From the NCBI GenBank assembly GCA_036381715.1, contig DASVCH010000069.1, positions 2,208-66,207 of the forward strand: a DNA stretch of 64,000 nt, in the 5' to 3' direction. The position numbers were made by a program, and so were the translations under genes. A model generated the notes under the pieces. It was not told where the DNA came from, made no database searches, and saw only the letters and a program-made list of their open reading frames with translations. This document shows, piece after piece, positions 4,985-64,000 of this stretch; position 1 is the stretch's first letter; each line of letters opens with the position of its first letter. This DNA comes from Gammaproteobacteria bacterium (GTDB lineage Bacteria; Pseudomonadota; Gammaproteobacteria; Natronospirales; JAJUFS01).

Positions 4985-6811
4985 TCAGTGTTTTCGTTTC
5001 TTCGGCAGATACAGATCCGTCAGCGTGCCTTCGAACGCTTCCGCGGCGAAACACACCGTTTCCGACAATGTCGGGTGCGGGTGAATCGTGAGGCCGATAT
5101 CGGCCGCGTCGCAGCCCATCTCGACCGCCAGCGCGACTTCCGCGATCAGCTCGCCCGCGTTCGGTCCGACCATCGCGCCGCCAAGCACGCGTTCGGTCTT
5201 CGGATCGAACAGCAGCTTGGTGAAACCTTCATCGCGGCCCAGCGACAGCGAGCGGCCGGATGCCGCCCACGGGAACTTGCCGACTTCGTACGCGACCCCG
5301 TCCTTCTTCGCCTGCTCTTCCGTCAGGCCGACCCACGCGACTTCCGGATCCGTGTAGGCGACGGAAGGAATCACGCGCGCATCGAAGAAACGCTTCTCGC
5401 CGGCGCACACTTCCGCCGCGACCTTGCCCTCGTGCGTCGCCTTGTGCGCGAGCATGGGCTGGCCGACGATGTCGCCGATCGCGAAGATGTGTTCGACATT
5501 CGTGCGCATCTGCTTGTCGACCTTGATGAAGCCGCGTTCGTCCGCGTCGATGCCCGCCTTGTCCGCGTCGATCCGCTTTCCGTTGGGTACGCGGCCAACT
5601 GCAACGAGCACGCGGTCGAACAACTGGTCGGAACCGGGCGCATTCTTCCCGTCGAACGACACCTTGATGCCGTTCTTCTGCGCCTTCATTTCCGTCACCT
5701 TCGTGCCGGTCATGATGTTCGCGTAGCGCGCCTTGATGCGTTTCTCCAGCGGTCGCACCAGGTCCTTGTCCGCGCCGGGCATCAATTGATCCGCGAGCTC
5801 GACGACGGTGACTTCCGAACCGAGCGCATCATAAACGCAAGCCATTTCGAGACCGATGATGCCGCCGCCGATCACGAGCAGTCTTTCCGGGACATCCTTC
5901 AGCTCCAGCGCGCCGGTGGAATCCATGACGCGCTCGTCGTCCGGCGCAAACGGCAGTTTCACCGGTTCGGAACCGGCCGCGATGATGCACTTCTCGAACC
6001 GGATGACCTGCCGGCTTCCTTCATTGTCGACTTCGAGGTGATGTGCACCGGCGAACTTTCCCGAACCGGTGACGACGTTCACCTTGCGCTGCTTCGCCAT
6101 GGTGGCAAGACCGCCGGTGAGCTTCTTCACCACGTCGCCTTTCCAGCCGACGAGCTTCTTCGCATCGATTCTCGGTTTGCCGAACTCGACGCCGAATTCC
6201 GACATGTGCGCGGCCTCGTCGATCACCTTGGCCGCGTGCAGCAAGGCCTTCGACGGAATGCAGCCGACATTCAGGCACACGCCGCCCAGCGAATCCCAGC
6301 GCTCGACCAGCGTCACTTTCAGGCCGAGATCCGCGGCGCGAAACGCCGCCGTGTAACCGCCCGGGCCGGCGCCCAGCACCAGTACCTCGGTTTCGAGATC
6401 GACCTTGCCCTGGTAATCATCGGCTTTCGGAGCAGAAACTTCCTTCTCCCCCTCACTCCGGCCCTCTCCCCGGGGGGGAGAGGGAGATTCTTCGCCAGCC
6501 CTTGCGGCGGTACTTGGCGCTTCGGCTTGCGGCTCTTCCTTCGACTTTCGACTTTCGACTTTCGACGCTTCCGTGGCTTCGACAATCGCGATCACGCTGC
6601 CTTCCGAAACCTTGTCGCCGACCTTGACCTTCATTTCCTTGATCGTGCCGGCCTGCGGCGCAGGAACGTCCATTGCCGCCTTGTCGGTTTCGAGCGTGAT
6701 CAGCGGCGTTTCCTTCTCGACCGCGTCACCCGCCTTCACGAGCACGTCGATGATTTCGACGTTCTCGAAGTCGCCGATGTCGGGAACCTTTATTTCGATT
6801 TCACTTGGCAT
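4985..6811 (-). CDS. lpdA: Dihydrolipoyl dehydrogenase (E3) with N-terminal lipoyl domain
   Basis: 608 aa. Lipoyl domain (LETDKAAMDVPAP), charged linker, then GAGPGGY and the redox disulfide GGVCLNVGCIPSKALL. Last gene of the aceE-aceF-lpd string. Confidence 0.95.
   Translation of the reverse strand: MPSEIEIKVPDIGDFENVEIIDVLVKAGDAVEKETPLITLETDKAAMDVPAPQAGTIKEMKVKVGDKVSEGSVIAIVEATEASKVESRKSKEEPQAEAPSTAARAGEESPSPPRGEGRSEGEKEVSAPKADDYQGKVDLETEVLVLGAGPGGYTAAFRAADLGLKVTLVERWDSLGGVCLNVGCIPSKALLHAAKVIDEAAHMSEFGVEFGKPRIDAKKLVGWKGDVVKKLTGGLATMAKQRKVNVVTGSGKFAGAHHLEVDNEGSRQVIRFEKCIIAAGSEPVKLPFAPDDERVMDSTGALELKDVPERLLVIGGGIIGLEMACVYDALGSEVTVVELADQLMPGADKDLVRPLEKRIKARYANIMTGTKVTEMKAQKNGIKVSFDGKNAPGSDQLFDRVLVAVGRVPNGKRIDADKAGIDADERGFIKVDKQMRTNVEHIFAIGDIVGQPMLAHKATHEGKVAAEVCAGEKRFFDARVIPSVAYTDPEVAWVGLTEEQAKKDGVAYEVGKFPWAASGRSLSLGRDEGFTKLLFDPKTERVLGGAMVGPNAGELIAEVALAVEMGCDAADIGLTIHPHPTLSETVCFAAEAFEGTLTDLYLPKKRKH
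6445..6486. repeat. GC palindrome element (CCCTCTCCCC-GGG-GGGGAGAGGG) inside the lpd linker coding region
   Basis: Perfect 10-bp arms at 6462..6484. Translated in frame as SPPRGEGRSEGE. Confidence 0.8.
6539..6566. repeat. Four heptamer units (CTTCGAC, TTTCGAC x3) inside the lpd linker
   Basis: Counted by hand. Translated on the minus strand as SKVESRKSK. Confidence 0.8.
6570..6811. repeat. Lipoyl-domain coding repeat, copy in lpd
   Basis: Direct repeat of 8010..8251 at an offset of 1440 nt. Positions 6731..6793 versus 8171..8233 show 63 nt with a single mismatch. Confidence 0.85.
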
Positions 6812-6911: not shown

Positions 6912-8251
6912 AACACGAGGTTACGCCGTTCTGCAAGCACTTCGGCCAGGAACGTCGTGAAGCGCGCCGCAGCGGCGCCGTCAATGATGCGGTGATCGTA
7001 GGACAGCGACAGCGGCAGCATGAGGCGCGGCATGAACTTCTTGCCGTTCCACACCGGTTTCATCTGCGCCTTCGAGACGCCAAGGATCGCGACTTCGGGC
7101 GCGTTCACGATCGGCGTGAAATACGTGCCGCCGATGGAGCCGAGCGAGGAAATCGAAAAGCACCCGCCCTGCATGTCGGCCGCTTTCAGCTTGCCGTTGC
7201 GCGCCTTCTCGGACAGATCGCCCAGCTCCTTGCCGATCTCGAAGATGTCCTTTTTGTCGGCGTCGCGCACCACCGGCACGACCAGGCCGCCCGGCGTATC
7301 GACGGCGAAGCCGATGTGAAAATATTTCTTGAATACCTGCTGCTCGCCATCCGGCGACAGCGAGCTGTTGAAGTTCGGGAACTCCTGCAGCGCCTGCACG
7401 CAGGCCTTGATGACGAAGGTCAGCGGCGTGAGCTTCGCGCCGACTTTCTCGGCGTCGGACTTCAGCGCCTTGCGCATGGATTCGAGTTCGGTGATGTCGG
7501 CCTCGTCGTGCTGGGTGACGTGCGGCACGTTCACCCACGCGGCGTGCAGGCGCGGGCCGGAAATCTTCTTGATGCGCGGCAGCGGTTTCGTTTCGATTTC
7601 GCCGAACTTGCCGAAATCGACTTCGTGGACCTGCGGCAGGCCGGCGCCTCCTGGCGCGCCTCCCGAACGCATGACGGATTTCACGAAACCCTTCACGTCC
7701 TCGTGCGTGATGCGCCCCTTGATGCCGGAACCGTTCACCTTGCCGAGATCGACGCCGAGCTCGCGCGCGAACTTGCGCACCGAGGGCGAGGCGTGCGCCT
7801 TCGAGAAGGATTCCTCGTTCACTGCAGGCAGGTCGGCAGAAGGACGAACGGCTTCCTGCGTGCCTTCCCCCTCACCCCGGCCCTCTCCCCGGAGGGGAGA
7901 GGGAGGCGCTTCGTTGACCTCTGCAACAGGTTTCGGCGCTTCGACTTGCGGTTCTTCTTCCTTCTCCCTTATCCCTTCTTCCTGTTCCTTGTCCTTCGAC
8001 TTCGACTCGTCCCCGGCTTCCAGCACCGCGATCACCGTCCCTTCGGACACCTTGTCGCCGTTACCGACCTTCATCTCCACGATCTTCCCGGCCGCCGGCG
8101 ACGGCACGTCCATCGCGGCCTTGTCGGTTTCCAGCGTGATGAGCGGCGTTTCCTTTTCGACAGTGTCGCCCGCCTTCACGAGCACGTCGATGATCTCGAC
8201 GTTCTCGAAGTCGCCGATGTCGGGAACCTTTATCTCAAACTTGTCAGCCAT
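6908..8251 (-). CDS. aceF: Dihydrolipoamide acetyltransferase (pyruvate dehydrogenase E2)
   Basis: ORF 6908..8269 trimmed to the ATG at 8251 (MADKFEIKVPDIG, GGAG RBS). One lipoyl domain, an E3-binding domain (ASPSVRKFARELGVDL) and a catalytic SYDHRIIDGA motif. Confidence 0.95.
   Translation of the reverse strand: MADKFEIKVPDIGDFENVEIIDVLVKAGDTVEKETPLITLETDKAAMDVPSPAAGKIVEMKVGNGDKVSEGTVIAVLEAGDESKSKDKEQEEGIREKEEEPQVEAPKPVAEVNEAPPSPLRGEGRGEGEGTQEAVRPSADLPAVNEESFSKAHASPSVRKFARELGVDLGKVNGSGIKGRITHEDVKGFVKSVMRSGGAPGGAGLPQVHEVDFGKFGEIETKPLPRIKKISGPRLHAAWVNVPHVTQHDEADITELESMRKALKSDAEKVGAKLTPLTFVIKACVQALQEFPNFNSSLSPDGEQQVFKKYFHIGFAVDTPGGLVVPVVRDADKKDIFEIGKELGDLSEKARNGKLKAADMQGGCFSISSLGSIGGTYFTPIVNAPEVAILGVSKAQMKPVWNGKKFMPRLMLPLSLSYDHRIIDGAAAARFTTFLAEVLAERRNLVL
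7865..7905. repeat. Second copy of the GC palindrome element (CCCTCTCCCC-GGA-GGGGAGAGGG) inside the aceF linker coding region
   Basis: Perfect 10-bp arms at 7881..7903. Translated in frame as SPLRGEGRGEGEG. Confidence 0.8.
7954..8007. repeat. Degenerate pyrimidine heptamer run (CTTCTTC CTTCTCC CTTATCC CTTCTTC CTGTTCC ...TTCGAC TTCGAC) inside the aceF linker
   Basis: Read directly. Translated on the minus strand as ESKSKDKEQEEGIREKEEE. Confidence 0.7.
8010..8251. repeat. Lipoyl-domain coding repeat, copy in aceF
   Basis: See the copy at 6570..6811. The protein N-termini are nearly identical (E/IKVPDIGDFENVEIIDVLVKAGD.VEKETPLITLETDKAAMDVP). Confidence 0.85.
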
Positions 8252-11235: not shown

Positions 11236-12708
11236 ATGTTCCCCGCCCTCCCCGCGCCCGCAAAAGTCAAGTTGGTTCAGCAACCCGGTCCACTTTCCGG
11301 CATCCCGGCGTCGCCGGATCACCTGCTGGTCGTCGCGACCAGGGGCGATGCGAAAGCCTTCGACAACGCCGCCGCATTCGCCGGACTCGCAAAGCGGGCG
11401 AAGGGCCGCGAGAAGGAAACGGTCACACTTCCCGCCGGCGAACAATTCATCACCATCGGCCGGCTCGCCGCCGACGCCACGCCATTCGAAATGCTGGAAG
11501 CGGCGCGCAAGTGGGTTGCCGCGATTCGTGGTCACAAGGCGAAAACCCTCGGGCTCGCGTTTGCCGGCATCGACGGCGACCGGGCCGGCGCCATCGCCGA
11601 GGCGGTGCTTGCCGCGCTGCTGGCGGCGGAATTCGAGATGCCGAAAATTGCCGCGAAAAAGGCAGCCGCGAAACCCGTCGTTCGCGAGCTGCACGTTTTC
11701 GGACTCGGCGAAAAACGCGATTTTGCGCGCACGCTGGCTGCCGCCGAAGGCACCAACCTCGCGCGCTGGTTCGCGACCCTGCCCGGCAATTACCTCACGC
11801 CCGGCAAATACCGGAAATATGTCGAAACACTGGCGAAGGAATTCGGCTGGGACGCGGAATTCCTCGATGAGGCCGCGCTGAAGAAGAGAAAGGCCGGCGC
11901 ATTCCTCGCCGTCGTCCAGGGCAGCGCGGATCGCGATGCCGGCATCCTGCACCTGCGCTACACGCCGGCGAAAGCGAAGAAGAACGCGGAAAAAATCGCG
12001 CTCGTCGGCAAGGGCATCTGCTTCGACACCGGCGGCAACAATCTCAAGACCGGCAAGAGCATGTTCGGCATGCACGGCGATATGCAGGGCTCGGCCGTCG
12101 CACTCGGCACGTTGGTCGCGCTCACGCGCATGAAGGCCGGTTTCCCGGTCGATTGCTGGATGGCGCTGGCGCAGAATCACATCGGCCCGAAGGCCTACAA
12201 GATGAACGACGTCGTGACGGCGTCGGACGGAACGACAATAGAAATCCTGCACACCGATGCCGAAGGCCGCATGGTGCTCGCCGACACGCTCGCCATTGCC
12301 AGCGAGTCAAGGCCGTCCTTCATCATGGATTTCGCCACGCTCACCGGCACCTGCGTGTATTCGCTCGGCACGCGCTACTCGGGCGCGTTCACGAACCGTG
12401 AGGATCTCGCGCAGAAACTGATCGACGCCGGCAGGCGCTCCGGCGAACGCGTCTGGCCGTTCCCGCAGGACCGCGATTACGACGAGCTGCTGGAAAGCAA
12501 GGTCGCGGACGTGAAGCAATGCCTGATCGAAGGCGAAGCGGACCACATTCTCGCCGGACGGTTCCTCAACCGTTTCGTCAAGCACGACACGCCGTGGGTG
12601 CACGTCGACCTGTCGGCATCCGAGGCAAAGGGCGGGCTCGCGCACGTGCCGTCGGATTTCACGGGCTTCGGCGTGCGTTTCGCGACACACTACCTGCTCG
12701 ACAGGTAA
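11236..12708 (+). CDS. M17 leucyl-aminopeptidase family protein
   Basis: ORF 11197..12708 trimmed to the ATG at 11236 (AGGAG 11 nt upstream). Motifs VGKGICFDTGGNNLK and HTDAEGRMVLADTL. Confidence 0.85.
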   Translation: MFPALPAPAKVKLVQQPGPLSGIPASPDHLLVVATRGDAKAFDNAAAFAGLAKRAKGREKETVTLPAGEQFITIGRLAADATPFEMLEAARKWVAAIRGHKAKTLGLAFAGIDGDRAGAIAEAVLAALLAAEFEMPKIAAKKAAAKPVVRELHVFGLGEKRDFARTLAAAEGTNLARWFATLPGNYLTPGKYRKYVETLAKEFGWDAEFLDEAALKKRKAGAFLAVVQGSADRDAGILHLRYTPAKAKKNAEKIALVGKGICFDTGGNNLKTGKSMFGMHGDMQGSAVALGTLVALTRMKAGFPVDCWMALAQNHIGPKAYKMNDVVTASDGTTIEILHTDAEGRMVLADTLAIASESRPSFIMDFATLTGTCVYSLGTRYSGAFTNREDLAQKLIDAGRRSGERVWPFPQDRDYDELLESKVADVKQCLIEGEADHILAGRFLNRFVKHDTPWVHVDLSASEAKGGLAHVPSDFTGFGVRFATHYLLDR

Positions 12709-17386: not shown

Positions 17387-17469
17387 CTTTCGCCTTTTCG
17401 CCACAAAAGCGAAAGCAATGGACAGGATTAACAGGATTTCATTTCATCAGGGCGGGCTTTGCCCGCCGC
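17387..17469. repeat. Mosaic module with AATGGACAGGATTAACAGGATTT and a GGCGGGC-TTT-GCCCGCC hairpin
   Basis: Alignable by eye with 41632..41711 and, more loosely, 62948..63036. Confidence 0.7.
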
Positions 17470-25567: not shown

Positions 25568-25682
25568 GTCGAAAGTCGAAAGGCGAAAGGCGAAAGGCGA
25601 AAGGCGAAAAAAAAAGAAGCGAAAAGCGGAAAGTGAAAAGCCGCGCTTCGCGCGGTTTTCACTTTCGACCTTCGACTTCGCC
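25568..25682. repeat. Heptamer element: GTCGAAA x2, GGCGAAA x4, A-run, hairpin core, short CTTTCGA/CCTTCGA arm
   Basis: Starts 3 nt after the lipoprotein stop. The arms are asymmetric. Confidence 0.8.
25633..25662 (+). terminator. Hairpin terminator after the lipoprotein gene
   Basis: GTGAAAAGCCGCGC-TTC-GCGCGGTTTTCAC. Near-identical core to 22442..22460 and 62923..62941. Confidence 0.55.
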
Positions 25683-33178: not shown

Positions 33179-33263
33179 TCCTTCCCGGGCGCGGCGACCA
33201 GCCATCGGCCGCGGAGCGGCCTCCTACAAGATTTCGCGTATCTTGAAGTGCGAGGCTCGACCG
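33179..33263. repeat. REP-like element, copy 1 (core hairpin GGCCGC-GGA-GCGGCC at 33207..33221)
   Basis: Alignable over about 80 nt with 41546..41631 and 63037..63119 (...CGGGCGCG-N-ATCGGCCGCGGAGCGGCCTCCTACRAGATTTCGCGT...GCGAGGC.CGA.CG). Confidence 0.8.
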
Positions 33264-33312
33264 CTTTCGCCTTTCGCCTTTCGCCTTTCGCCTTTCGCCT
33301 TTCGCCTTTCGA
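33264..33312. repeat. Pyrimidine heptamer array: CTTTCGC x6, CTTTCGA x1
   Basis: Ends 2 nt before the TonB-receptor stop. Lies inside the receptor operon spacer. Confidence 0.9.
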
Positions 33313-33314
33313 GA

Positions 33315-35498
33315 TCAGTCGAACCGGTACGCCACCGTACCGACCACCGTCCGGCGTTCGCCCCAGAAACAGTCGCCGCGCGCAAGGCAGGTCGCAAGGT
33401 ATTCCTTGTCCGCGGCGTTGCGCACGTTCAGGCGAAAGTCCCAGTCGCGCATCTCGTAACCGATCATGAAGTCCGCAAGCGTATAGGACGGCGTGCGGAT
33501 GTCATCGGCGCCATCGAAACTTTCGCCGACGTAGCGTACGCCGAGACCCGTCTTGAATCCCGGCCAGAAATGCGGACGGTAACCCAGCCACGCGGACGCC
33601 TGGTTTTCCGGCACCGATGCAAACTGGAAACCGTTCGCATTTTCGGTGTCGAGCCTGCTCGCATTCACCTCGAGCGCGAAATCGCCGAACTGCGTTTTCG
33701 ATTCGACTTCGACGCCACGAATGTTCGCAATGCCTTCCTGCTGCGAGGGCGCGTCGGGAAGCGCGAACGGATTCGCGAGGTTCGACTGCTCGATGTCGAA
33801 CGCGGCCACGGTGATGAAGGTGTGCGACCCGATCGGCTGGAACTTGATGCCGATTTCCGTCTGCTCGCCTTCCTGCGGCTTGAGCGGTTCCTGGGTGACG
33901 TTGTCGACGCCGATCACCGGTTCGAAGGATTCCGCGTAGCTCACGTACGGCGCGATGCCGTTGTCGAACCAGTACAGCGCGCCGACGCTGGCGCTTACCG
34001 CGTCGTCTTCCTGCACGGCGGCACCCGTGTCGGTGCTCACGTCGTCGAAACGCACGCCGGCAGTGAAACGCCAGCTTTTCCAGGAAATCTGATCGTTGAT
34101 GTACAGGCCGGTGTCCTGCGTGTTCGCTTCCGGTCCATCGATGAAGAACTGGTCGAGAATGTCCTGCGACGGAAACGCGCCGTACTCGGGATCGAACAGG
34201 TTGATCCAGAACTGATCGCCGTAAACGGCGTCCGGCTGGCCGGTGGCAAGGTCGTATCCCAGCGCGTAGGCGTTCGCGAGATCGTTCTCGGTCGTCACGT
34301 CCTGGTATTGAAGGCCGATCATCAGCTCGTGGTCGAGTGCGCCGGTCGAGAACTCCGCGCGCAGGCGCGTGTCCATCGCAAGCTGTTCCGAGGTCGCGTC
34401 GCTGGCGTAGAACGTCCGCGGCACCATGCCGTCGCGATACAGCGAACCGTCAGCGTTGAAAACGTAGCGCGTGCCGCCGATGAACGCCGGCCACGCCTGG
34501 TTGTAGTCCGCCGCGCCGTCCGTCCAGCGCGCGGTCGCTTCGATCGACCAGGTCGCGTTGATCATGTGATCGGCGAGCAACGTCAGCGATTGGGTTTCGG
34601 TGTTGTAGTGATCGAACGCCGGGTCGCCGTAAAAGCTTTCGATATCGAGGAATTCGCCATTCGGTGCCGGATACAGGGTGCCGTAAAGGGGAACGAACTG
34701 CTCGCCGGTGGCGCCGCTGGATTCCTGGAAGTTCGCAAGCAGGGTGAGATTCGTGCGCGCGCTCGGGCTCCACGTCACCGACGGCGCGAACACCCAGGCG
34801 TCGTTCTCGACGAAATCCACCTGCGTGCCCGCGTCGCGATACACCGCGGTCACGCGGTACAGCAGGCTGCCGGATTCGTTCATCGCGCCGCCGAAATCCG
34901 TCGCCAGCTGCATGTGATCGAAGTTGCCGAGCTGCATCACGACTTCGGAACGCAGGTTCGCGCGCGGACGCTTGCTGACCACGTTCACCAGGCCGCCGGG
35001 CGAACCCTGCCCGTACAGCACGGACGCGGGACCTTTCAGGATCTCGACCTGCTCAAGCGTGTAAACGTGCGGGCGGGTGTTGTTGTAGTTGCCGAACAGC
35101 GCCTGCAGCGAGTCGCGGTATTCCGGCACGTCCAGGCCGCGCACTTTCACCCAGTCGCCGCGCGTCGCGAAACCGTAGGCCTCGCCGAACACGCCGGCGG
35201 AATACAGGTAGGCGTCGGCAAGCTCCAGCGCGCCGCGCGCTTCGAGCGTGTCGGCTGTCTCGATGGAGACCGAGCGTGCCGTTTCCATGATGGGCGTATC
35301 GGATTTCAGCGCCGAATAGCGCGACATCTCGCCGGTGACGGTGACCTCGGCGAGACGCGCGGCCTCCTCGTCCTGCCGGTTCGAAACGTCCTCCGCCGTT
35401 GCCGATTCCGGCGCCCGGGACTCCTCTTCTTCTGCCGCCGCGACCATCGTCGCGCCAAGTCCCATGAAAAGCGCCAGAAGCCATGTCCCGTACCGCAT
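33315..35498 (-). CDS. TonB-dependent siderophore receptor
   Basis: 727 aa. Signal peptide, plug-domain motifs (EVTVTGE..., IEILKGPASVLYGQGSPGGLVN) and a beta-barrel. A Fur-box-like palindrome lies 47 nt upstream. Confidence 0.9.
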   Translation of the reverse strand: MRYGTWLLALFMGLGATMVAAAEEEESRAPESATAEDVSNRQDEEAARLAEVTVTGEMSRYSALKSDTPIMETARSVSIETADTLEARGALELADAYLYSAGVFGEAYGFATRGDWVKVRGLDVPEYRDSLQALFGNYNNTRPHVYTLEQVEILKGPASVLYGQGSPGGLVNVVSKRPRANLRSEVVMQLGNFDHMQLATDFGGAMNESGSLLYRVTAVYRDAGTQVDFVENDAWVFAPSVTWSPSARTNLTLLANFQESSGATGEQFVPLYGTLYPAPNGEFLDIESFYGDPAFDHYNTETQSLTLLADHMINATWSIEATARWTDGAADYNQAWPAFIGGTRYVFNADGSLYRDGMVPRTFYASDATSEQLAMDTRLRAEFSTGALDHELMIGLQYQDVTTENDLANAYALGYDLATGQPDAVYGDQFWINLFDPEYGAFPSQDILDQFFIDGPEANTQDTGLYINDQISWKSWRFTAGVRFDDVSTDTGAAVQEDDAVSASVGALYWFDNGIAPYVSYAESFEPVIGVDNVTQEPLKPQEGEQTEIGIKFQPIGSHTFITVAAFDIEQSNLANPFALPDAPSQQEGIANIRGVEVESKTQFGDFALEVNASRLDTENANGFQFASVPENQASAWLGYRPHFWPGFKTGLGVRYVGESFDGADDIRTPSYTLADFMIGYEMRDWDFRLNVRNAADKEYLATCLARGDCFWGERRTVVGTVAYRFD

Positions 35499-41545: not shown

Positions 41546-41631
41546 CTTCCTTCCGGGGCGCGACGACCAACAATCGGCCGCGGAGCGGCCTCCTACGAGA
41601 TTTCGCGTGTCCGGGGATGCGAGGCGCGAAC
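41546..41631. repeat. REP-like element, copy 2 (core hairpin at 41576..41590)
   Basis: Begins 9 nt after the monooxygenase stop. See 33179..33263. Confidence 0.8.
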
Positions 41632-41711: not shown

Positions 41712-41837
41712 CTTTCGCCTTTCGCCTTTCGCCTTTCGCCTTTCGCCTTTCGCCTTTCGCCTTTCGCCTTTCGCCTTTCGCCTTTCGCCTTTCGCCTTTC
41801 GCCTTTCGACTTTCGACTTTCGACTTTCGACTTTCGA
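41712..41837. repeat. 18-unit pyrimidine heptamer array: CTTTCGC x13, CTTTCGA x5
   Basis: Counted unit by unit. All 18 units are perfect. Ends 9 nt before the stop of the GDPD-like gene. Confidence 0.95.
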
Positions 41838-41846
41838 CTGTCGTCT

Positions 41847-42890
41847 TCACCCTTCCCCGCACGCATTGACCGCGTACCGGTCCGCACCGTGATCGTGATC
41901 CAGCAGCACGCGTACTTCGGGTATCGCCGACAACTCCCGCAACAGTTGCACGTCATCCGGAATGTGATAGATGAACACCGGGACGCCGCCAAGCAGCTCG
42001 CGCGTCACCGGTCCGTAGATCGGTTCCCCGCGGTAGTAATAATTCATTCCGAGCACGTCAAAGTCGCCGAAATGAAAGAGCGCCTTGTAAAGGTTGATGA
42101 CGAACGGCGTCATGAAATGCCCGTCCGCCAGCGGCTGGATATCGAAAATGGTGCGAAAGCCGGCATCCCTGAAATGCGCGAGATGAAACGGCGTCGCGCC
42201 CTCGACGTAAATGCGGTTCTTCGCCATGCCGAGACCGTCCGCAATCTCGACCAGCCGCGCCGCGGCATCGGCGATCGCCTCGTCGCCGAGATGCCGCATG
42301 TGCTTGAAGTCCAGCCAGTAGAAATGTTCGCCGCCGACTTCGCGAAACAGTTTTTCCAGTGACAGGAGTTCGCCGTCCTTCAGGTCGTAGGGGAAGTTGT
42401 GCGACACGACGTATCGCGCAAGCTCGGGGTCGTAGAAGACGTCGATTTCCGCGCCCCGCGCGCCACGCTCGAACGCGAGCCTCACGGTAGCGATGCTGTT
42501 GCCGGCGGTGTGGTCGTTCACCGCCGCATCCAGCACCAGCCCGCGCGTCGCCCAGACCTTGTGGCAGTCCTTGTAGATTCCTTCGTAAGTCCTGGCCTGC
42601 AAGCCGCGATCCAGGAGCGCAACCGACGCATGCCAGGCGAACACAAGCAGCGCAACGGTCGAAACCGCGGCCAGCGGCAGCCGCCAGCGCGACTCCGCGT
42701 AAAGCGATGCGAAACAGGACAGAACAAAGAGCGGCACCAGCAACAGCACGACCAGCACATCAAGGAGGATGAGAGTCGCATCCGCGCTCAGTTGGACAAG
42801 TGCGACGAGAACAAGCAACGCCGCGGCAAGCAGCGCGAAAATCGCGGCAGGCTTCCGGAGATATTTCATTTTCACTCGCGAGCGAATCAT
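41847..42890 (-). CDS. Membrane-anchored glycerophosphodiester-phosphodiesterase-like protein
   Basis: 347 aa. N-terminal TM helices, then a GDPD/PI-PLC-X-like segment (WATRGL...[21 protein letters not shown]). ATGA overlap with the upstream LtaS-like gene. An alternative start exists at 42869. Confidence 0.6.
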
Positions 42891-45034: not shown

Positions 45035-46381
45035 CTACAACTTTGCCGCGAGGAGGCGTTCGTTGGTCTTCGCCAGGCGCTCGATCAGCGTGCGCACGAA
45101 CACCCGGTGAAACTTCAGCTGCACGTCCTTCGGCGCGCGCTCGATGGCGGCCGCGCTCAGCACCAGCAGGTCGACCGTGCCGCGCGCCCGGATTGTCGCG
45201 GTCCGCTTGATGTGATTGAAGAAACCCATTTCGCCGAAGCAGTCGCCCTCGCGCAGCACGCCAAGCTCGGTGTCGCCCTTCCAGACGGAAACCTCGCCGG
45301 AAACCAGCACGAAGAAGCTGTCGTCCAGTTCGCCTTCGGTCACGATGTTGCGGCCGCTGGCGAGATTGCGCCATTGCCCCGCGCGAACGACTTCGCGCAG
45401 TTCCCCGTCATTGAAGCCGTCGAAGAACGCCAGCCGGCGCGACAGTTTCACCCGTGCATCTTCGTCAAGCTCCTGCGTCGCTGCGTTGATCTCGTCGAAG
45501 ATGTAGGCGAGGTCGCCGGCGATGTCGAGTCCGCTGCGGTAACGCCGGCGCGGCTCCTTGCGCAGGCAGCGCATGATCACGCGGTCGAGAATCCCGGGCA
45601 CATCGACCCGGTAGCGGCTTGGCGGCACCGGCTCTGCGTGCATGATCCGGTGCGTGAGATCTTTCAGCGACTCGGCGAAGAATGGCGACATGCCCGTCAG
45701 GAGTTCGTAGACCGTCACGCCAAGGGAATAGAGATCGGTCTGATGGTTGACGTCCTCGCCGCGCACCTGCTCGGGCGACATGTAACGCGGCGTGCCGATG
45801 GAACCGGCCAGCTCGTCGTCCGGCCGCCTCGCGGACTTGGCAATGCCGAAATCCACGATCAGCGTATGACCGCGCGCGTTCATCAGGATGTTGGCGGGCT
45901 TGATGTCGCGGTGAACGACGCCGCTGCGGTGCGCGTATTCCAGCGCCTTTGCCGTCGAGAAGAAAATTTCGACGACCTTGCTCATCGGCAGGAGGCTGTC
46001 GGCGCGCGCGTATTTCGACAGCGCCACCGAATCCGGCAGGAATTCCATCACCACGTAGCGCCGGCCGTCCTCTTCGCCGGCGTCGTGGATCGGCAGGATG
46101 TTCGGGTGCTTTAGCTGGCCGGCGAGGTGCGCTTCGTTGAAAAACAGCCGCGACTGCAATGCCGCCTGCTGGCCTTCGAGCTGATCGTCCCGGTAGTAGA
46201 CCTTGATCGCGACGTCGCGATTCTCGAAGGGATCGTGACCGAGATAGACGATTCCGGAACTGCCGCGGCCGAGTTCGCGCTGCAGGGCGTACTTGCCGAG
46301 TCTTGCCGGCGCCGGCCCTGCCGGCGCAACCGCTGCGGCTTCTGCCATGCCAAGCGGTGTCGTCGATCCATGACGTTTCAT
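45035..46381 (-). CDS. Hanks-type Ser/Thr protein kinase fused to a C-terminal cyclic-nucleotide-binding domain (copy 2)
   Basis: ORF 45035..46720 trimmed to the ATG at 46381, which overlaps the upstream stop (TAATG). Kinase motifs GRGSSGIVY, VAIK, HRDIKPANIL, DFG, TPRYMSPE. CNB motif FGEMG...RTATI. Confidence 0.85.
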   Translation of the reverse strand: MKRHGSTTPLGMAEAAAVAPAGPAPARLGKYALQRELGRGSSGIVYLGHDPFENRDVAIKVYYRDDQLEGQQAALQSRLFFNEAHLAGQLKHPNILPIHDAGEEDGRRYVVMEFLPDSVALSKYARADSLLPMSKVVEIFFSTAKALEYAHRSGVVHRDIKPANILMNARGHTLIVDFGIAKSARRPDDELAGSIGTPRYMSPEQVRGEDVNHQTDLYSLGVTVYELLTGMSPFFAESLKDLTHRIMHAEPVPPSRYRVDVPGILDRVIMRCLRKEPRRRYRSGLDIAGDLAYIFDEINAATQELDEDARVKLSRRLAFFDGFNDGELREVVRAGQWRNLASGRNIVTEGELDDSFFVLVSGEVSVWKGDTELGVLREGDCFGEMGFFNHIKRTATIRARGTVDLLVLSAAAIERAPKDVQLKFHRVFVRTLIERLAKTNERLLAAKL

Positions 46382-47661
46382 TACCTGTCGTCCTTTACCA
46401 CCCGCTCGCTCGTCCTTGTCAGGCGCTCGATCAATGTGCGCAGGAACACCTTGTGAAACCGCAGCTGGCAGGCCATCGACGCCTGCTCGATCAGCGTGGA
46501 ATTCACGCGCATCACCGCGACGCCCTTTTCCGAGGTGACGGTCGCCGTTCTTTCGGTCTTGTTGAGATAGCCCATTTCGCCGAAGCAGTCGCCTTCCTGG
46601 AGTTTTCCCAGCGACTTGCCGCCCTTGGTCACGACGACCTCGCCGGAGACGATGATGAAGAAGCTTTCGTCGATCTCGCCTTCGACGACGATCGAATCGC
46701 CGGTGTCGTAGGTCTCCCATTTGCTGGCGTTCAGCACCTCCCAGACTTCCGGGTAGCTGAACTCCCGGAAGAAGCTCAGGCGCCGCACCATGTTGAAGCG
46801 CTCCTGCTCCGCGACTTCGCGCGCCATCCGGCCGAGGTCGTTGAACGCCGTTGTCAGCGCGACGGAAAGTTCCAGCGCGGACCTGTAGCGCCTGGCGGGA
46901 TCCTTGTTCATCGCCCGATCGACGATCTGCTCCAGCATTTCAGTGACTTCCGAGCGCAGGCGATGCACGGGAATCGGCGTGGCGTAAAGCACCTGGTGCA
47001 CCAGCGCGGAAAGGTTTTCGCCGTAGAACGGCCGCTTGCCCGTGAGCAGTTCGTACATCAATACACCCAGCGCATAGATGTCCGTCTGGTTGGTGATGCT
47101 TTCTTCGCGCACCTGCTCCGGTGCCATGTAGCTCGGGCTGCCGACCAGGCCCGACATCGGCGTCAGGTCGGCGACGGGATTGTGCGCGATGCCGAAATCC
47201 ACGATGCGAACATCGCCATCGGCGGTCATCAGGATATTGCTCGGCTTGATGTCGCGGTGAACGACGCCCTTGCGGTGCGCGTAATCCAGCGCCTTCGCGC
47301 ACTTGAAGACGATCTCGACGATCTTCCTGACCGGCAGCAGGTTCTGCGGCTGGCAGAAGGCCGACAGCGGCTTGCCGCCGCGCACGTACTCCATGACGAT
47401 GTAGCACTTGCCGTCTTCCTCGCCGGCATCGTAGATCGGCAGCACATTCGGATGCTGCAGCATCCCGGCCAGGTGCGCCTCGTTGAAGAACAGGCGCTTT
47501 CTCACGCGCTGCTGTTCCTCGGAAAGGCCCGCGTCGCTCGCAAAAAGCTTCAGCGCCACGTCGCGCTGGTGATACGGATCGTGGCAGAGATAGACGGTGC
47601 CCGAGCCGCCCTTGCCGAGTTCGCGCGTGATGACGTATTTGCCGAGCTTTTCGATCTTCAT
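46381..47661 (-). CDS. Hanks-type Ser/Thr protein kinase fused to a C-terminal cyclic-nucleotide-binding domain (copy 1)
   Basis: 426 aa. Kinase motifs GKGGSGTVY, VALK, HRDIKPSNIL, DFG, SPSYMAPE. CNB motif FGEMG...RTATV. The start overlaps the pgpA stop (ATGA). Confidence 0.9.
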   Translation of the reverse strand: MKIEKLGKYVITRELGKGGSGTVYLCHDPYHQRDVALKLFASDAGLSEEQQRVRKRLFFNEAHLAGMLQHPNVLPIYDAGEEDGKCYIVMEYVRGGKPLSAFCQPQNLLPVRKIVEIVFKCAKALDYAHRKGVVHRDIKPSNILMTADGDVRIVDFGIAHNPVADLTPMSGLVGSPSYMAPEQVREESITNQTDIYALGVLMYELLTGKRPFYGENLSALVHQVLYATPIPVHRLRSEVTEMLEQIVDRAMNKDPARRYRSALELSVALTTAFNDLGRMAREVAEQERFNMVRRLSFFREFSYPEVWEVLNASKWETYDTGDSIVVEGEIDESFFIIVSGEVVVTKGGKSLGKLQEGDCFGEMGYLNKTERTATVTSEKGVAVMRVNSTLIEQASMACQLRFHKVFLRTLIERLTRTSERVVKDDR

Positions 47662-50088: not shown

Positions 50089-50144
50089 CTTTCGCCTTTC
50101 GCCTTTCGCCTTTCGCCTTTCGCCTTTCGCCTTTCGCCTTTCGC
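50089..50144. repeat. 8-unit array CTTTCGC x8 in the ribBA-ribH spacer
   Basis: Counted unit by unit. Abuts the ribBA stop (1 nt gap). I found no complementary arm nearby. Confidence 0.95.
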
Positions 50145-50145
50145 C

Positions 50146-51240
50146 TCAATCGCAATCCACGTAATCCACCACCTCAAGACCAAAGCCCGAAATGCCGTGC
50201 ATCCGCTTCGGCGCCGACAGCACCCGCATGCGGCGTACGCCGAGATCGTTGAGAATCTGCGCGCCTACGCCGTAGGTCCGCAGCACGGTCGCGCCATCCA
50301 CCGCGTCCTCGCTTCGCGGCCTGTCGCCCTGGCGGAAGCGTTCGGCAATGTCGGCGGGCTTTTCCTCCGGCCGCAGGATCACCAGCACGCCGCCCTCTTC
50401 CGCGATTCGCCGCATGGCGTTTCGAAGCGGCCAGCCAAGCGTGTTCCAGCCGAGGTTCATGACATCCGACAGCGTGTTCTGCAGGTGCACGCGCACCAGC
50501 GTCGGCTCTTCCGGGTCGACGTCGCCGCGCACCAGCGCAAAGTGAACCGTGCGATGCACGTAATCCTCGAAGCACACGACGCGGAACTCGCCGAACTCGG
50601 TCTCGACAGTCTGCTCGCCGATGCGCTCGACCGATTGTTCCTTTTCCATCCGGTAGCGAATCAGATCGGCAATCGTGCCGATCTTGAGACCGTGCGTGTC
50701 CGCGAACTTCTCGAGATCCGGCAGGCGCGCCATGGAGCCGTCGTCGTTCAGGATTTCGACAATCACCGCGGCGGGTTCATGGCCCGCAAGCCGCGCAAGA
50801 TCGCAGCCGGCTTCGGTGTGTCCGGCGCGCGACAGCACGCCGCCCGGCTGCGCCATCAATGGAAAAATGTGGCCCGGCTGTTTCAGGTCTTCGGGGCGCG
50901 CGTCCTTCTTCACCGCGGTTCGCACGGTGTGCGCGCGGTCGTGCGCGGAAATGCCGGTGGTGACGCCCTCGGCGGCCTCGATCGACAGCGTGAAGTTCGT
51001 CGCCAGCTGTTCGTTGGTTTCCGTCACCATCAGCGGCAGGCGCAATTGCCGGCAGCGATCCTGCGTCACCGTCAGGCAGATCAGGCCGCGCCCGTTGCGC
51101 GCCATGAAGTTGATGTCTTCCGGCCGCACCATGGACGCCGCCATGATGAGATCGCCTTCGTTCTCGCGATCCTCGTCATCCATCATGATGACCATCTTGC
51201 CGTTACGGATGTCTTCGAGGATGTCTTCGATCTTGTGCAT
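50146..51240 (-). CDS. ribBA: Bifunctional 3,4-dihydroxy-2-butanone-4-phosphate synthase / GTP cyclohydrolase II
   Basis: 364 aa. Opens GKMVIMMDDEDRENEGDLIMAA, with a C-terminal RibA-like half. Confidence 0.9.
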   Translation of the reverse strand: MHKIEDILEDIRNGKMVIMMDDEDRENEGDLIMAASMVRPEDINFMARNGRGLICLTVTQDRCRQLRLPLMVTETNEQLATNFTLSIEAAEGVTTGISAHDRAHTVRTAVKKDARPEDLKQPGHIFPLMAQPGGVLSRAGHTEAGCDLARLAGHEPAAVIVEILNDDGSMARLPDLEKFADTHGLKIGTIADLIRYRMEKEQSVERIGEQTVETEFGEFRVVCFEDYVHRTVHFALVRGDVDPEEPTLVRVHLQNTLSDVMNLGWNTLGWPLRNAMRRIAEEGGVLVILRPEEKPADIAERFRQGDRPRSEDAVDGATVLRTYGVGAQILNDLGVRRMRVLSAPKRMHGISGFGLEVVDYVDCD

Positions 51241-51275
51241 CTTGCGCCTCGCATGCGCCTGTTGTGAAAGAGAAG

Positions 51276-51375
51276 AATGGACAGGATTTACAGGATTGAA
51301 GATGGATTGACAGGATTTAAAAGCAAACGCAAAAAATACTGTTAATCCTGAAAAATCCTGTCAATCCTGTCCATT
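51276..51375. repeat. AT-rich inverted repeat built from AATGGACAGGATT(T/G)ACAGGATT modules in the ribE-ribBA spacer
   Basis: Left arm 51276..51297. Right arm 51354..51375 (AATCCTGTCAATCCTGTCCATT) overlaps the last ribE codons. Further GGATTGACAGGATTT and AATCCTGAAAAATCCTG submodules lie between. Confidence 0.8.
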
Positions 51376-51975
51376 GCTCTTTGTTTGCTCCGACAAAAGT
51401 CGCTCCAGGTATCGTGCGACCACATCGACTTCCAGGTTCACCTTGTCGCCTGGCGAGCGCGAACCGAGGTTCGTCACCGCAAGCGTATGCGGCACGATGT
51501 TCACGTCGAAACGCGAACCATCGACGCCGTTGACAGTGAGACTGATGCCGTCGATGCAGATGGAGCCCTTGCGCGCGATGTATTTCGCGAGCGCTTGCGG
51601 CGCTTCGAACAGGAAACGCCAGGAGCGCGCGTCTTCCTTTCTTTCGATGAGCATTCCGACGCCGTCGACGTGACCGCTGACCAGGTGCCCGCCAAGGCGT
51701 TCGCCTGCAGCGAGCGCGGGTTCGAGATTCACGCGGTCGCCGGCTTTCAACGAACCGAGCGTCGTGTGCTCCAGCGTCTCGCGCGAGACGTCCGCGACAA
51801 GATGCGTTTTCGCCGGTTCGATCGCCGTCAGGCACACGCCATTCACCGCGATGCTTTCGCCGGTCGCGAAATCCTTTCCTGAGAGATCGCCAAGCGCGAC
51901 ACGAAGACGCATGTCCCCGTTGCGCGTTTCCACGTTTTCAACCGATCCCGTAGCCTGGATGATTCCGGTGAACAT
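51361..51975 (-). CDS. ribE: Riboflavin synthase
   Basis: 204 aa. Motifs MFTGIIQATG, GESIAVNGVCLT and GSICIDGISLTV. The last five codons and the stop lie in the AT-rich repeat module. Confidence 0.9.
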   Translation of the reverse strand: MFTGIIQATGSVENVETRNGDMRLRVALGDLSGKDFATGESIAVNGVCLTAIEPAKTHLVADVSRETLEHTTLGSLKAGDRVNLEPALAAGERLGGHLVSGHVDGVGMLIERKEDARSWRFLFEAPQALAKYIARKGSICIDGISLTVNGVDGSRFDVNIVPHTLAVTNLGSRSPGDKVNLEVDVVARYLERLLSEQTKSNGQD

Positions 51976-57150: not shown

Positions 57151-57171
57151 GAGTAAAGACTAAGGGGAAAG

Positions 57172-57248
57172 GTCGAAAGTCTAAAGTCGAAGGTCGAAAG
57201 TGAAGAGCGCCGGGTTCGCCTTTCGACCTTCGACCTTCGACTTTCGAC
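57172..57248. repeat. 29-bp-stem heptamer hairpin in the divergent HDAC-family / rimB-like promoter region
   Basis: GTCGAAAGTCTAAAGTCGAAGGTCGAAAG, a 19-nt loop, then CTTTCGACCTTCGACCTTCGACTTTCGAC. Two mismatches by hand alignment. Confidence 0.85.
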
Positions 57249-57263
57249 CCGGTTCTTCCTGCT

Positions 57264-61226: not shown

Positions 61227-62897
<1,671 letters not shown>

Positions 62898-62901
62898 AAG
62901 C

Positions 62902-62922
62902 GTCGAAGGTCGAAAGTGAAAA
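62902..62922. repeat. Three purine heptamers (GTCGAAG GTCGAAA GTGAAAA) leading into the ettA terminator
   Basis: Starts 5 nt after the ettA stop. Confidence 0.8.
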
Positions 62923-62947
62923 AGCCGCGCTTCGCGCGGCTTTTTTT
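62917..62947 (+). terminator. Intrinsic terminator of ettA
   Basis: AAAAAA-GCCGCGC-TTC-GCGCGGC-TTTTTTT, 20 nt after the ettA stop and preceded by three heptamer units. Confidence 0.7.
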
Positions 62948-63036
62948 CCTTTCGCAACAAAAGCGAAGAGCAATGGACGGGACTTCGCAGGATTTTTCAG
63001 GATTTGCAGGACGTCCGAATGTGCGTGCAGGAGCGC
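62948..63036. repeat. Degenerate mosaic module (CCTTTCGCAACAAAAGCGAAGAGCAATGGACGGGACTTCGCAGGATTTTTCAGGATTTGCAGGA...)
   Basis: Same order of submotifs as 17387..17469 and 41632..41711, but more diverged. Confidence 0.6.
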
Positions 63037-63119
63037 CCTCCCGGGCGCGATTATCAGCAATCGGCCGCGGAGCGGCCTCCTACGAGATTTCGCGTGTTTT
63101 GAAGTGCGATGCGCGACCG
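63037..63119. repeat. REP-like element, copy 3 (core hairpin at 63063..63077)
   Basis: See 33179..33263. Confidence 0.8.
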
Positions 63120-63273
63120 CTTTCGCCTTTCGCCTTTCGCCTTCTCCCTTCTCCCTTCTCCCTTCTCCCTTCTCCCTTCTCCCTTCGACCTTCGACCTTC
63201 TCCCTTCGACCTTCGACCTTCGACCTTCGACCTTCGACCTTCGACCTTCGACCTTCGACCTTCGACCTTCGAC
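63120..63273. repeat. 22-unit mosaic pyrimidine heptamer array: CTTTCGC x3, CTTCTCC x6, CTTCGAC x2, CTTCTCC x1, CTTCGAC x10
   Basis: Counted unit by unit: 154 nt with no phase break. Ends 22 nt upstream of the MASE1 gene ATG. Confidence 0.95.
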
Positions 63274-63295
63274 TCCCCCGTAGTACCATCCCGCC

Positions 63296-64000
63296 ATGAA
63301 TCCGCGCATCGCCATCATCTACCTGGCGTCCTATGTGTTCCTCGACTGGGTGAGCTACGTGCACCCGGTGCTGCCCATCGGCATCACGCCGTGGAATCCG
63401 CCGCCCGGCCTGAGCCTGTTTCTCCTGCTCGTCTTCGGCCTGCGTTACTGGCCGCTGCTGTTCGTGGCCGCACTCGCGGCGGACGTGATCGTGCGCGGCA
63501 TTCCGGCGCCGTGGCCGGTGCTGCTCGAAGCCGCGGGCCTGCTCACCGGCGCCTACACGCTGGCGGCTTTCCTGCTGAGAAAATTCTTTCGCAACGACAT
63601 GCGCTTCGATACCGCGCGGCACCTCGGTGTCTTCCTCGCCGTCGTGGTGCCGATCACACTGGTGGTTTCCACGACGTACGTCGCGTTGTTCATGTCGGTC
63701 GGCCGCGTTCCGGCCGGCGAGTTCCTGCCGAGCATGTACCGTCACTGGGTCGGCGACCTGAACGGCATCCTTGTGTTCACGCCTGCGCTGCTGACCTGGG
63801 CGGGCGCCGCGGCGATATGGCGCAAGGGCTGGACGGGCCTGGTGACGCTCGAAGCCGTCGCGCAGATGCTGAGCATCGCATTCACCCTGTGGGTGATTTT
63901 CGGGCTCACCACCACTGACGAATTCAAGTTCTTCTACCTGCTGTTCCTGCCGCTGATCTGGATCGCCGTGCGCTGGGGCATGCGCGGCGCCACGCTCGCG
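63296..64000 (+). CDS. MASE1-domain membrane sensor protein (5' part; continues beyond the window)
   Basis: Absent from the ORF track because no stop occurs in the window. My translation from the ATG at 63296 reads MNPRIAIIYLASYVFLDWVSYVHPVLPIGITPWNPPPGLSLFLLLVFGLRYWP...HWVGDLNGILVFTPALL. It stays open for 235 codons with strong third-position GC. Confidence 0.7.
   Translation, partial: MNPRIAIIYLASYVFLDWVSYVHPVLPIGITPWNPPPGLSLFLLLVFGLRYWPLLFVAALAADVIVRGIPAPWPVLLEAAGLLTGAYTLAAFLLRKFFRNDMRFDTARHLGVFLAVVVPITLVVSTTYVALFMSVGRVPAGEFLPSMYRHWVGDLNGILVFTPALLTWAGAAAIWRKGWTGLVTLEAVAQMLSIAFTLWVIFGLTTTDEFKFFYLLFLPLIWIAVRWGMRGATLA

Follow-up and report, generated by a model that had tools for sequence, protein, structure and literature searches.

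A 22-unit heptamer array upstream of a MASE1 sensor gene is probably the overgrown arm of a mosaic intergenic element

In this study, we analysed a 64,000-nt stretch of DNA (the window, 64 kb in full) in which a heptamer array lies between ettA and a MASE1 sensor gene. The first-pass annotation had described the array as 22 perfect units in one phase. Re-reading of the sequence and a strict repeat detector gave exactly this result, a single unbroken phase of 22 units and 154 nt at 63120-63273, with the unit count taken from a short-read metagenome-assembled genome and the exact number only as sound as that assembly. The 22-nt distance from the array end to the ATG at 63296 was also given correctly (TCCCCCGTAGTACCATCCCGCC, 63274-63295). 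On the + strand the array is pyrimidine-rich and is a mosaic of three unit types. The features of the locus are as follows.

61227-62897, + strand: ettA (ABC-F translational throttle), the gene upstream of the array; TAA stop at 62895-62897; Pfam ABC_tran twice and ABC_tran_Xtn
62902-62922, + strand: purine arm, GTCGAAG GTCGAAA GTGAAAA; repeat family D10, common to 17344, 22421 and 25618
62924-62947, no strand assigned: intrinsic terminator of ettA, probably bidirectional; GCCGCGC-TTC-GCGCGGC, then T7, with an A5 run upstream
62948-62955, + strand: short pyrimidine arm CCTTTCGC, immediately 3' of the T-run; base-paired to GTCGAAAG when folded
62956-63012, + strand: copy of module A (AACAAAAGCGAAGAGCAATGGACGGGACTTCGCAGGATTTTTCAGGATTTGCAGGA), aligned with copies from 17403 and 41645
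63036-63119, + strand: module B, a dispersed element of about 85 nt that a CTTTCGC array always follows
63120-63273, + strand: the 22-unit mosaic heptamer array
63120-63140, + strand: array block 1, CTTTCGC x3
63141-63182, + strand: array block 2, CTTCTCC x6
63183-63196, + strand: array block 3, CTTCGAC x2
63197-63203, + strand: array block 4, CTTCTCC x1
63204-63273, + strand: array block 5, CTTCGAC x10
63262-63267, + strand: -35-like hexamer TCGACC, 4/6 matches, spanning the junction of units 21 and 22
63284-63289, + strand: -10-like hexamer TACCAT, 16 nt after the -35 and 6 nt before the ATG
63296-64000, + strand: 5' part of the MASE1 sensor gene, which runs off the window; Pfam MASE1; without an upstream Shine-Dalgarno motif

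The element 3' of ettA is thus built, in order, of the purine arm, the GC-rich terminator hairpin with T7, the short CCTTTCGC, module A, the REP-like module B and the array. The tract at 63120-63273 gave TRF scores of 171 and 48, far above chance, and its perfect runs of 10 CTTCGAC and six CTTCTCC units are of slippage-prone length. Units 9-11 and units 12-14 are an identical 21-nt block, and the lone CTTCTCC unit is therefore accounted for by one duplication of three units. H-DNA was considered at (CTTCTCC)6 and rejected, as the unit has no mirror symmetry.

The gene downstream of the array had been called a MASE1 gene, and this was borne out by Pfam (MASE1, E 3e-19). Its closest homologue aligns from residue 2 with the start at 63296, and the reading frame cannot begin further upstream because of an in-frame TAG at 63281. 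In the homologues, the MASE1 domain is combined with HisKA or PAS domains. Open reading frames across the array, such as 62869-63318 (- strand) and 63109-63918 (+ strand), were taken as frames generated by the repeat; the MASE1 frame has a GC3 of 0.89 and the Pfam match. For the upstream gene, a protein 100% identical to the EttA of the window carries this name in an NCBI metagenome-assembled genome.

It had been suggested that the array is not a simple terminator stem, since its nearest complementary arm is short and distant. We found the purine arm in place at 62902-62922, and the argument holds, with 3 units against 22 and a gap of 198 nt. The first unit of the arm, GTCGAAG, is the exact complement of CTTCGAC, and in the minimum-free-energy fold the arm was paired with the CTTCGAC units of the array. 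In the fold of 62898-62956, the 7-bp GC stem is lengthened by its flanks to 13 bp (-27.4 kcal/mol, z -3.4). The segment 62916-62947 has the build of a predicted intrinsic terminator, with a GC-rich stem-loop, T7 downstream and A5 upstream. A pattern-based promoter and terminator scanner returned 0 promoters and 0 terminators for 62700-63500, and since it overlooked the evident 13-bp stem with T7 at 62916-62947, its negatives are unreliable here. Across the whole 64-kb window, no Rfam family reached the gathering threshold; sub-threshold Rfam matches at 62850-63320 were to the terminator only and were rejected. The position of the array in the promoter or upstream region of the MASE1 gene, as the first-pass annotation had it, follows from the geometry.

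The modules of the element downstream of ettA recur elsewhere in the window, at 17.3-17.5 kb with their order unchanged and at 41.5-41.8 kb in permuted form. Besides its recurrences at 17403 and 41645, module A (62956-63012) gave a BLAST match to a palindrome arm at 51344-51381. This palindrome of about 110 nt, at 51270-51400 between the ribBA start and the ribE stop, has module A as one of its arms, and each arm holds three GGACAGGATT-like motifs at a spacing of 9-10 nt; from its sequence it looks like a protein-binding or MITE-like element. Module B is present in three copies (33180, 41549 and 63036; repeat family D5, alignment A1), all on the + strand and all with a CTTTCGC array directly after them. 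Its core is exact in the three copies (33204-33227, 41573-41596 and 63060-63083), and none was found in 100 shuffles. On the - strand the core reads GTAGGAGGCCGCTCCGCGGCCGAT, that is GTAGGAG-GCCGC-TCC-GCGGC-CGAT, a GTAG head with a GC palindrome. Module B, and not the array, thereby has the form of a GTAG-type REP, an imperfect palindrome of 20-40 nt with an unpaired GTAG head. A consensus fold of the three copies gave a plausible structure with at most one compensatory pair and was rejected as evidence.

All three module B copies in the 64 kb are intergenic, and every gap that holds one is bordered by at least one gene 3' end. At 33180 and 41549 the following array reaches the stop codon of a minus-strand gene and no start codon. 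Given that these two arrays run into stop codons, lying next to a start is no general feature of the element. On this pattern, the three CTTTCGC units at 63120-63140 appear as the usual tail of module B, and the CTTCGAC block, the complement of the GTCGAAG arm, is best read as the original partner arm that was later expanded. The module B core had 0 matches in the scan of metagenome contigs, and neither module A nor module B had a match in plasmids. When 24 kb of the window were compared with plasmids by megablast, the matches were confined to conserved genes (71-78% identity). The 20 window ORFs that were scanned yielded no RAYT transposase gene.

We then considered the array as a member of a family. 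Period-7 repeats made up 23 of the 62 rows in the TRF list of the 64-kb window, where the strict detector reported 10 tracts. By eye, about 19 period-7 tracts could be counted, in 13 intergenic regions and two coding linkers. They are built from one small unit family, namely CTTTCGC, CTTCGAC, CTTCTCC, CTTCTAC and CTTCTCA with their complements. The other long tracts are as follows.

41712-41847: 19 units
50089-50146: 8 units
33264-33311: 7 units
25570-25641: about 10 units

Most window arrays adjoin a stop codon or separate convergent genes (17315/17507, 22402/22480, 25564/25688, 33315, 41847 and 50146), and those that abut stop codons do so at 33315, 41847, 50146, 17315, 22402 and 25564. Others lie between cistrons of operons (aceE-aceF-lpd, ribBA-ribH, ribE-ribD, nrdR-ribD and rimB-rimK). 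Only one divergent intergenic region in the window (57150/57264) has arrays. Gene starts elsewhere in the window are rough calls from third-codon-position GC. The same strict detector found 3 tracts in 1.26 Mb of loci encoding MASE1 homologues and 1 tract in 71 kb of syntenic relatives, which indicates that the expansion of the tracts is restricted to a narrow lineage of uncultured bacteria, probably Burkholderiales in the older sense.

Heptamer-like tracts and a GC palindrome, CCCTCTCCCCGGGGGGGAGAGGG, were also observed within coding inter-domain linkers of - strand genes, in lpd (6534-6570 and 6462-6484) and in aceF (7954-8005 and 7881-7903); this lpd bears a lipoyl domain. They translate to stretches with SPSPPRGEGRSEGEKE and EEPQVEAPKP...PPSPLRGEGRGEGEG. 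At these flexible linkers, which can accommodate a tract, the heptamer family seems to have spread into coding sequence. As a separate observation, 45035-46720 and 46381-47661 (- strand) are adjacent paralogues with a Ser/Thr protein kinase and a cyclic-nucleotide-binding domain, 72-78% identical in DNA. Their longest-ORF coordinates overlap by about 340 nt, and the start of the downstream gene, 45035-46720, is probably over-extended.

The arrays of the window have a fixed polarity. On the top strand, the purine-rich array comes before the pyrimidine-rich one, about 10:0. Ten window elements fold into long hairpins, with z from -1.1 to -7.6 and 9 of the 10 at -2.8 or lower. Four of the elements have a canonical GC stem at the centre, an A-run before it and a T-run after it (repeat family D10); these four are probable bidirectional terminators with heptamer-extended arms. 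We also scanned metagenome contigs for (CTTYSRC)x4, which gave at least 120 loci. The polarity and pairing statistics that follow are drawn from loci picked by the search pattern itself, which is strand-symmetric. Among the matches listed, opposite-type arrays within 250 nt of each other in unrelated contigs were ordered purine-then-pyrimidine in 17 cases and in reverse in 0, and the pairing of the arms had z of -2.6 or lower against shuffled arms in 13 of these 17 pairs. With rough GC3 gene calls, and again among the matches listed, arrays beside starts were pyrimidine-rich in the sense of the gene by 24:11, and arrays beside stops were purine-rich by 19:8. Several of the listed pairs lie in divergent regions, where a pyrimidine array stands 2-20 nt before each start. 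A limited search of the literature found no description of a purine-to-pyrimidine polarity or of heptamer-armed palindromes.

Comparison with relatives pointed to turnover of the arrays. Between nrdR and ribD, a purine/pyrimidine hairpin is present in the window and in the relatives L081 and L082, where the unit sequences differ and the arms are still complementary; it is absent in L085. Between the HDAC-like gene and rimB, L081 has two-unit proto-arrays against 4-5 units per arm in the window. Between rimB and rimK, the arrays are found in the window only, among the compared relatives. Between ribE and ribD, L081 has a pair of GTAG REPs at about 745-825 (the inverted pair GTAGGTTGGGGTGAGCGTAGCGAACCCCAAC and its partner) where the window has a heptamer hairpin. 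Judged from these sites, related genomes seem to fill the same intergenic niche with different palindromic elements. A difference at their own array was also found between L157 and L170, which are 92-96% identical.

For the array upstream of MASE1, no orthologous locus that would allow a comparison of lengths was found; the best homologue was 57-59% identical and without synteny (best 59% in a genome scan and best 57% in a search of 5.8 billion proteins). The relatives L081-L085, which were found via EttA, are all syntenic up to ettA and then carry a CHASE3-HAMP-GGDEF gene instead of MASE1, so that the site of the array cannot be aligned with theirs. Their ettA DNA is 88-90% identical to that of the window, the downstream gene is different and arrays are almost absent. 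The junction downstream of ettA thus appears to be a site of gene replacement. Separately, L081 holds at 11672-11870 an exact 40-nt copy of the 3' end of the window's ettA, about 160 nt downstream of its own ettA stop, which suggests an insertion that duplicated or replaced the end of the gene.

We next examined the promoter geometry in front of MASE1. A relaxed scan of 62940-63300 gave as its best sigma-70-like site TCGACC, 16 nt, TACCAT, 6 nt and ATG, an 8/12 consensus match that was found post hoc. Sites as good as this occur at 4.7e-4 per nt and are so placed in only 2 of 51 called genes. Upstream of the array, neither the pattern scan of 62700-63500 nor the relaxed scan of 62940-63300 gave a promoter-like site, and a scan of the locus found no sigma-54 motif. 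Before the MASE1 ATG there is no Shine-Dalgarno motif. A TAnnnT exactly 6 nt upstream was found at 6 of the 32 called starts without such a motif and at 0 of the 18 starts with one; with a background of 0.0012 per position, about 0.04 would be expected among the 32. The six starts are as follows.

11197, + strand
29621, - strand
40359, + strand
57150, - strand
57847, + strand
63296, + strand (MASE1)

At the HDAC-like gene, TAG(C/G/T)CT at 6-7 nt before the ATG is kept in the window and in four relatives (five contigs), and the flanks have diverged. These patterns suggest that genes of this lineage are commonly transcribed without a leader and that MASE1 may be one of them, the A of its ATG being the predicted transcription start. 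Under this predicted start, the array spans about -176 to -23. A tract of 154 nt is too long for a -35/-10 spacer. As perfect periodicity extends over the proximal 70 nt and the boundary on that side does not move, gain or loss of units would leave the core promoter unaltered.

Repeats of this kind are known from several systems. According to PMC4679880 and PMC11868660, which summarise the LSSR5-11 survey of Mrazek, Guo and Shah (2007), heptamers are the commonest unit length in repeat-rich genomes, including Burkholderia and Xanthomonas. With its 7-nt unit, 154 nt and TRF score of 171, the array has the length of an LSSR5-11. As in the survey so summarised, it is a tandem heptanucleotide tract beyond chance length and one of many in a GC-rich environmental bacterium, and the tracts in the 64 kb are chiefly non-coding. 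However, the purine-then-pyrimidine pairs, complementary arms, small unit family and ties to terminators and dispersed modules seen here are not mentioned in those summaries.

The GTAG-type REP and BIME elements (PMC2817692, PMC3733652) offer a second comparison. The GTAG head and GC palindrome of module B have the same build as TGTAGGAGCGGATTCATCCGCGAT and GTAGGAGCGCGCTCGCGCGCGA in Table 1 of PMC2817692, and the class is defined in PMC3733652; in build, the core resembles the REPs of Pseudomonas and Xanthomonas. Like REP and BIME elements, the window elements lie downstream of ORFs in unidirectional and convergent gaps and are mosaics of several conserved motifs, and in the relative L081 a REP pair takes the place of one of the window's heptamer hairpins. 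Unlike them, the array itself is a tandem repeat, module B is visible in only three copies, all single and in one orientation, and no RAYT was found in the 20 ORFs scanned.

Two known heptamer repeats lie upstream of genes. The hmw1A and hmw2A promoters of H. influenzae carry 9-28 seven-bp repeats, and higher repeat numbers are accompanied by lower mRNA levels (PMC2424069). The pyrimidine-rich 7-bp unit, the range of about 9-28 copies and the position upstream of a coding sequence are similar. However, H. influenzae is a host-adapted pathogen, its hmwA repeats are tied to specific loci and the mRNA level follows their copy number, whereas here the tracts are genome-wide and the predicted promoter is at the proximal edge of the array. 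The TAACTGA repeats of marine Beggiatoaceae and cyanobacteria (PMC4679880) are likewise many intergenic heptamer arrays, often a few nt before starts without a ribosome-binding site. They repeat a single unit, which in the reference genome makes up sets of 2-6 copies, and they occur as direct repeats only (169 sets, with 1 indirect set), whereas the window arrays combine several types of unit, reach 22 copies, form inverted purine/pyrimidine pairs and are also found at 3' ends.

The explanation that we prefer, at a probability of roughly 0.55, treats the array as a pyrimidine-rich arm that has overgrown within a mosaic intergenic element. The array would belong to a genome-wide heptamer family grown by slippage and would not be a switch dedicated to MASE1. 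The family would descend from the extended arms of bidirectional terminators or REP-like stem-loops and would largely still act as such; in these structures the 5' flank is rich in A and the 3' flank rich in U. The arrays would expand, contract and turn over fast by replication slippage. At the MASE1 locus, the CTTCGAC block may have grown to 10 units together with the one 21-nt (3-unit) duplication. The leaderless MASE1 mRNA would be transcribed from the predicted -10 TACCAT in the 22-nt spacer and a -35 TCGACC that the last two units provide. If copy number has an effect, this would probably be graded, through the distance or helical phase (about 240 degrees per 7 nt) to upstream sequences, or through insulation from ettA. 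Several observations stand against this explanation. Descent from terminators leaves unexplained the purine/pyrimidine pairs in divergent promoter regions (57155-57250 in the window; L130, L153 and L179 elsewhere). Since its 22 units face an arm of 3 at a distance of 198 nt, pairing into a stem cannot be the main role of the MASE1 array. Modules A and B could be seen in no more than 3-4 copies, and the 20 ORFs scanned yielded no RAYT. Moreover, ten perfect units beside a promoter are what a contingency locus would look like at this place.

The first-pass annotation had gone further and read the array as a case of classical phase-variable expression, in which gain or loss of units shifts spacing in 7-nt steps. 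Its view of the array as an upstream sequence other than a plain terminator stem was confirmed, but this further step was not. Contingency promoters have tracts limited to a few specific genes, whereas the window has about 19 tracts of the same family in 64 kb, mostly at 3' ends, in convergent gaps and in operons, where for most of them promoter tuning is impossible. Phase variation of the spacing type is also disfavoured, as in the best promoter-like site the predicted -35 falls within the last units and the predicted -10 beyond the array, at an invariant spacing. Because the tract family is window-wide, the core promoter spacing is invariant and no orthologous locus allows lengths to be compared, the classical reading is unsupported. 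Given the spread of the tracts, a dedicated on/off switch for the MASE1 gene is unlikely; a graded effect of unit number is possible by analogy with the hmwA repeats of H. influenzae. Taking the array as a switch of the sensor gene would be an over-interpretation, and by itself it is an ordinary long heptanucleotide repeat in a repeat-rich genome.

A contingency locus or rheostat, which we consider unlikely, would place a promoter or activator site upstream of or within the array, so that slippage shifts distance or helical phase and MASE1 expression varies between cells. The ten perfect CTTCGAC and six CTTCTCC units directly upstream of the start are in line with it, and the 7-bp repeats of the hmw1A and hmw2A promoters are its closest precedent. 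Arrays at orthologous sites differ between close relatives, which indicates that heptamer tracts do change length, and a heptanucleotide tract has been evolved into a hypermutable locus in the laboratory, as outlined in bioRxiv 10.1101/2024.05.01.592015. However, the same arrays occur at 3' ends and between convergent genes, the scans found no promoter-like site upstream of the array, the best site at its proximal edge has a spacing independent of unit number, and the host is an uncultured soil bacterium rather than a host-adapted pathogen with a contingency gene set. Neutral slippage debris, a tract family without any role whose unit count may be distorted by short-read assembly, seems rather unlikely. 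It would fit the relatives that lack arrays at the same sites and the source of the sequence, a short-read metagenome-assembled genome. Undirected slippage, however, would hardly produce the strict 17:0 polarity (among the matches listed) together with retained complementarity of the arms, and the hairpin between nrdR and ribD holds its position and pairing despite sequence change. The mosaic blocks are also internally consistent and shorter than the typical 141-mer assembly word size.

The array may instead be an RNA leader. Its transcript would then form an unstructured 5' UTR, rich in pyrimidines, to which ribosomal protein S1 or another RNA-binding protein of this kind is recruited, and translation would thereby be driven or regulated without a Shine-Dalgarno motif. 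This reading is quite improbable. The MASE1 ATG and the starts of other array-preceded genes do lack the motif, the same role was proposed for the Beggiatoaceae TAACTGA repeats, which stand a few nt upstream of starts where ribosome-binding sites are rare (PMC4679880), and start-adjacent arrays among the metagenome loci listed favour the pyrimidine-rich sense (24:11). The missing Shine-Dalgarno motif is, however, better explained by leaderless transcription (TAnnnT at 6 nt in 6/32 starts against about 0.04 expected). No promoter was found upstream of the array, and the same arrays follow stop codons in the complementary purine-rich sense.

Returning to the preferred reading of the array as an overgrown arm, the strict polarity, kept complementarity, terminator sites, fast turnover and REP-like module suggest that, in large environmental genomes, some heptamer repeats taken to be "neutral" are REP-like elements with a structure of their own. 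A broader version, put forward here with low confidence, is that purine-then-pyrimidine heptamer palindromes are a widespread, selected and so far undescribed intergenic class in uncultured GC-rich bacteria. Evolving by slippage and able to pair their periodic arms in many different registers, these palindromes would serve as bidirectional terminators or insulators, and their pyrimidine arms (TTCGAC and TTTCGC units) would also supply -35 boxes for leaderless promoters. If this is true, array dynamics would create, move and tune terminators and promoters genome-wide, with the MASE1 array as an extreme case that is possibly tunable. If some heptamer repeats are indeed structured REP-like elements, they could guide the prediction of terminators and leaderless promoters in uncultured lineages and would offer a natural system for studying regulatory hairpins built by slippage.
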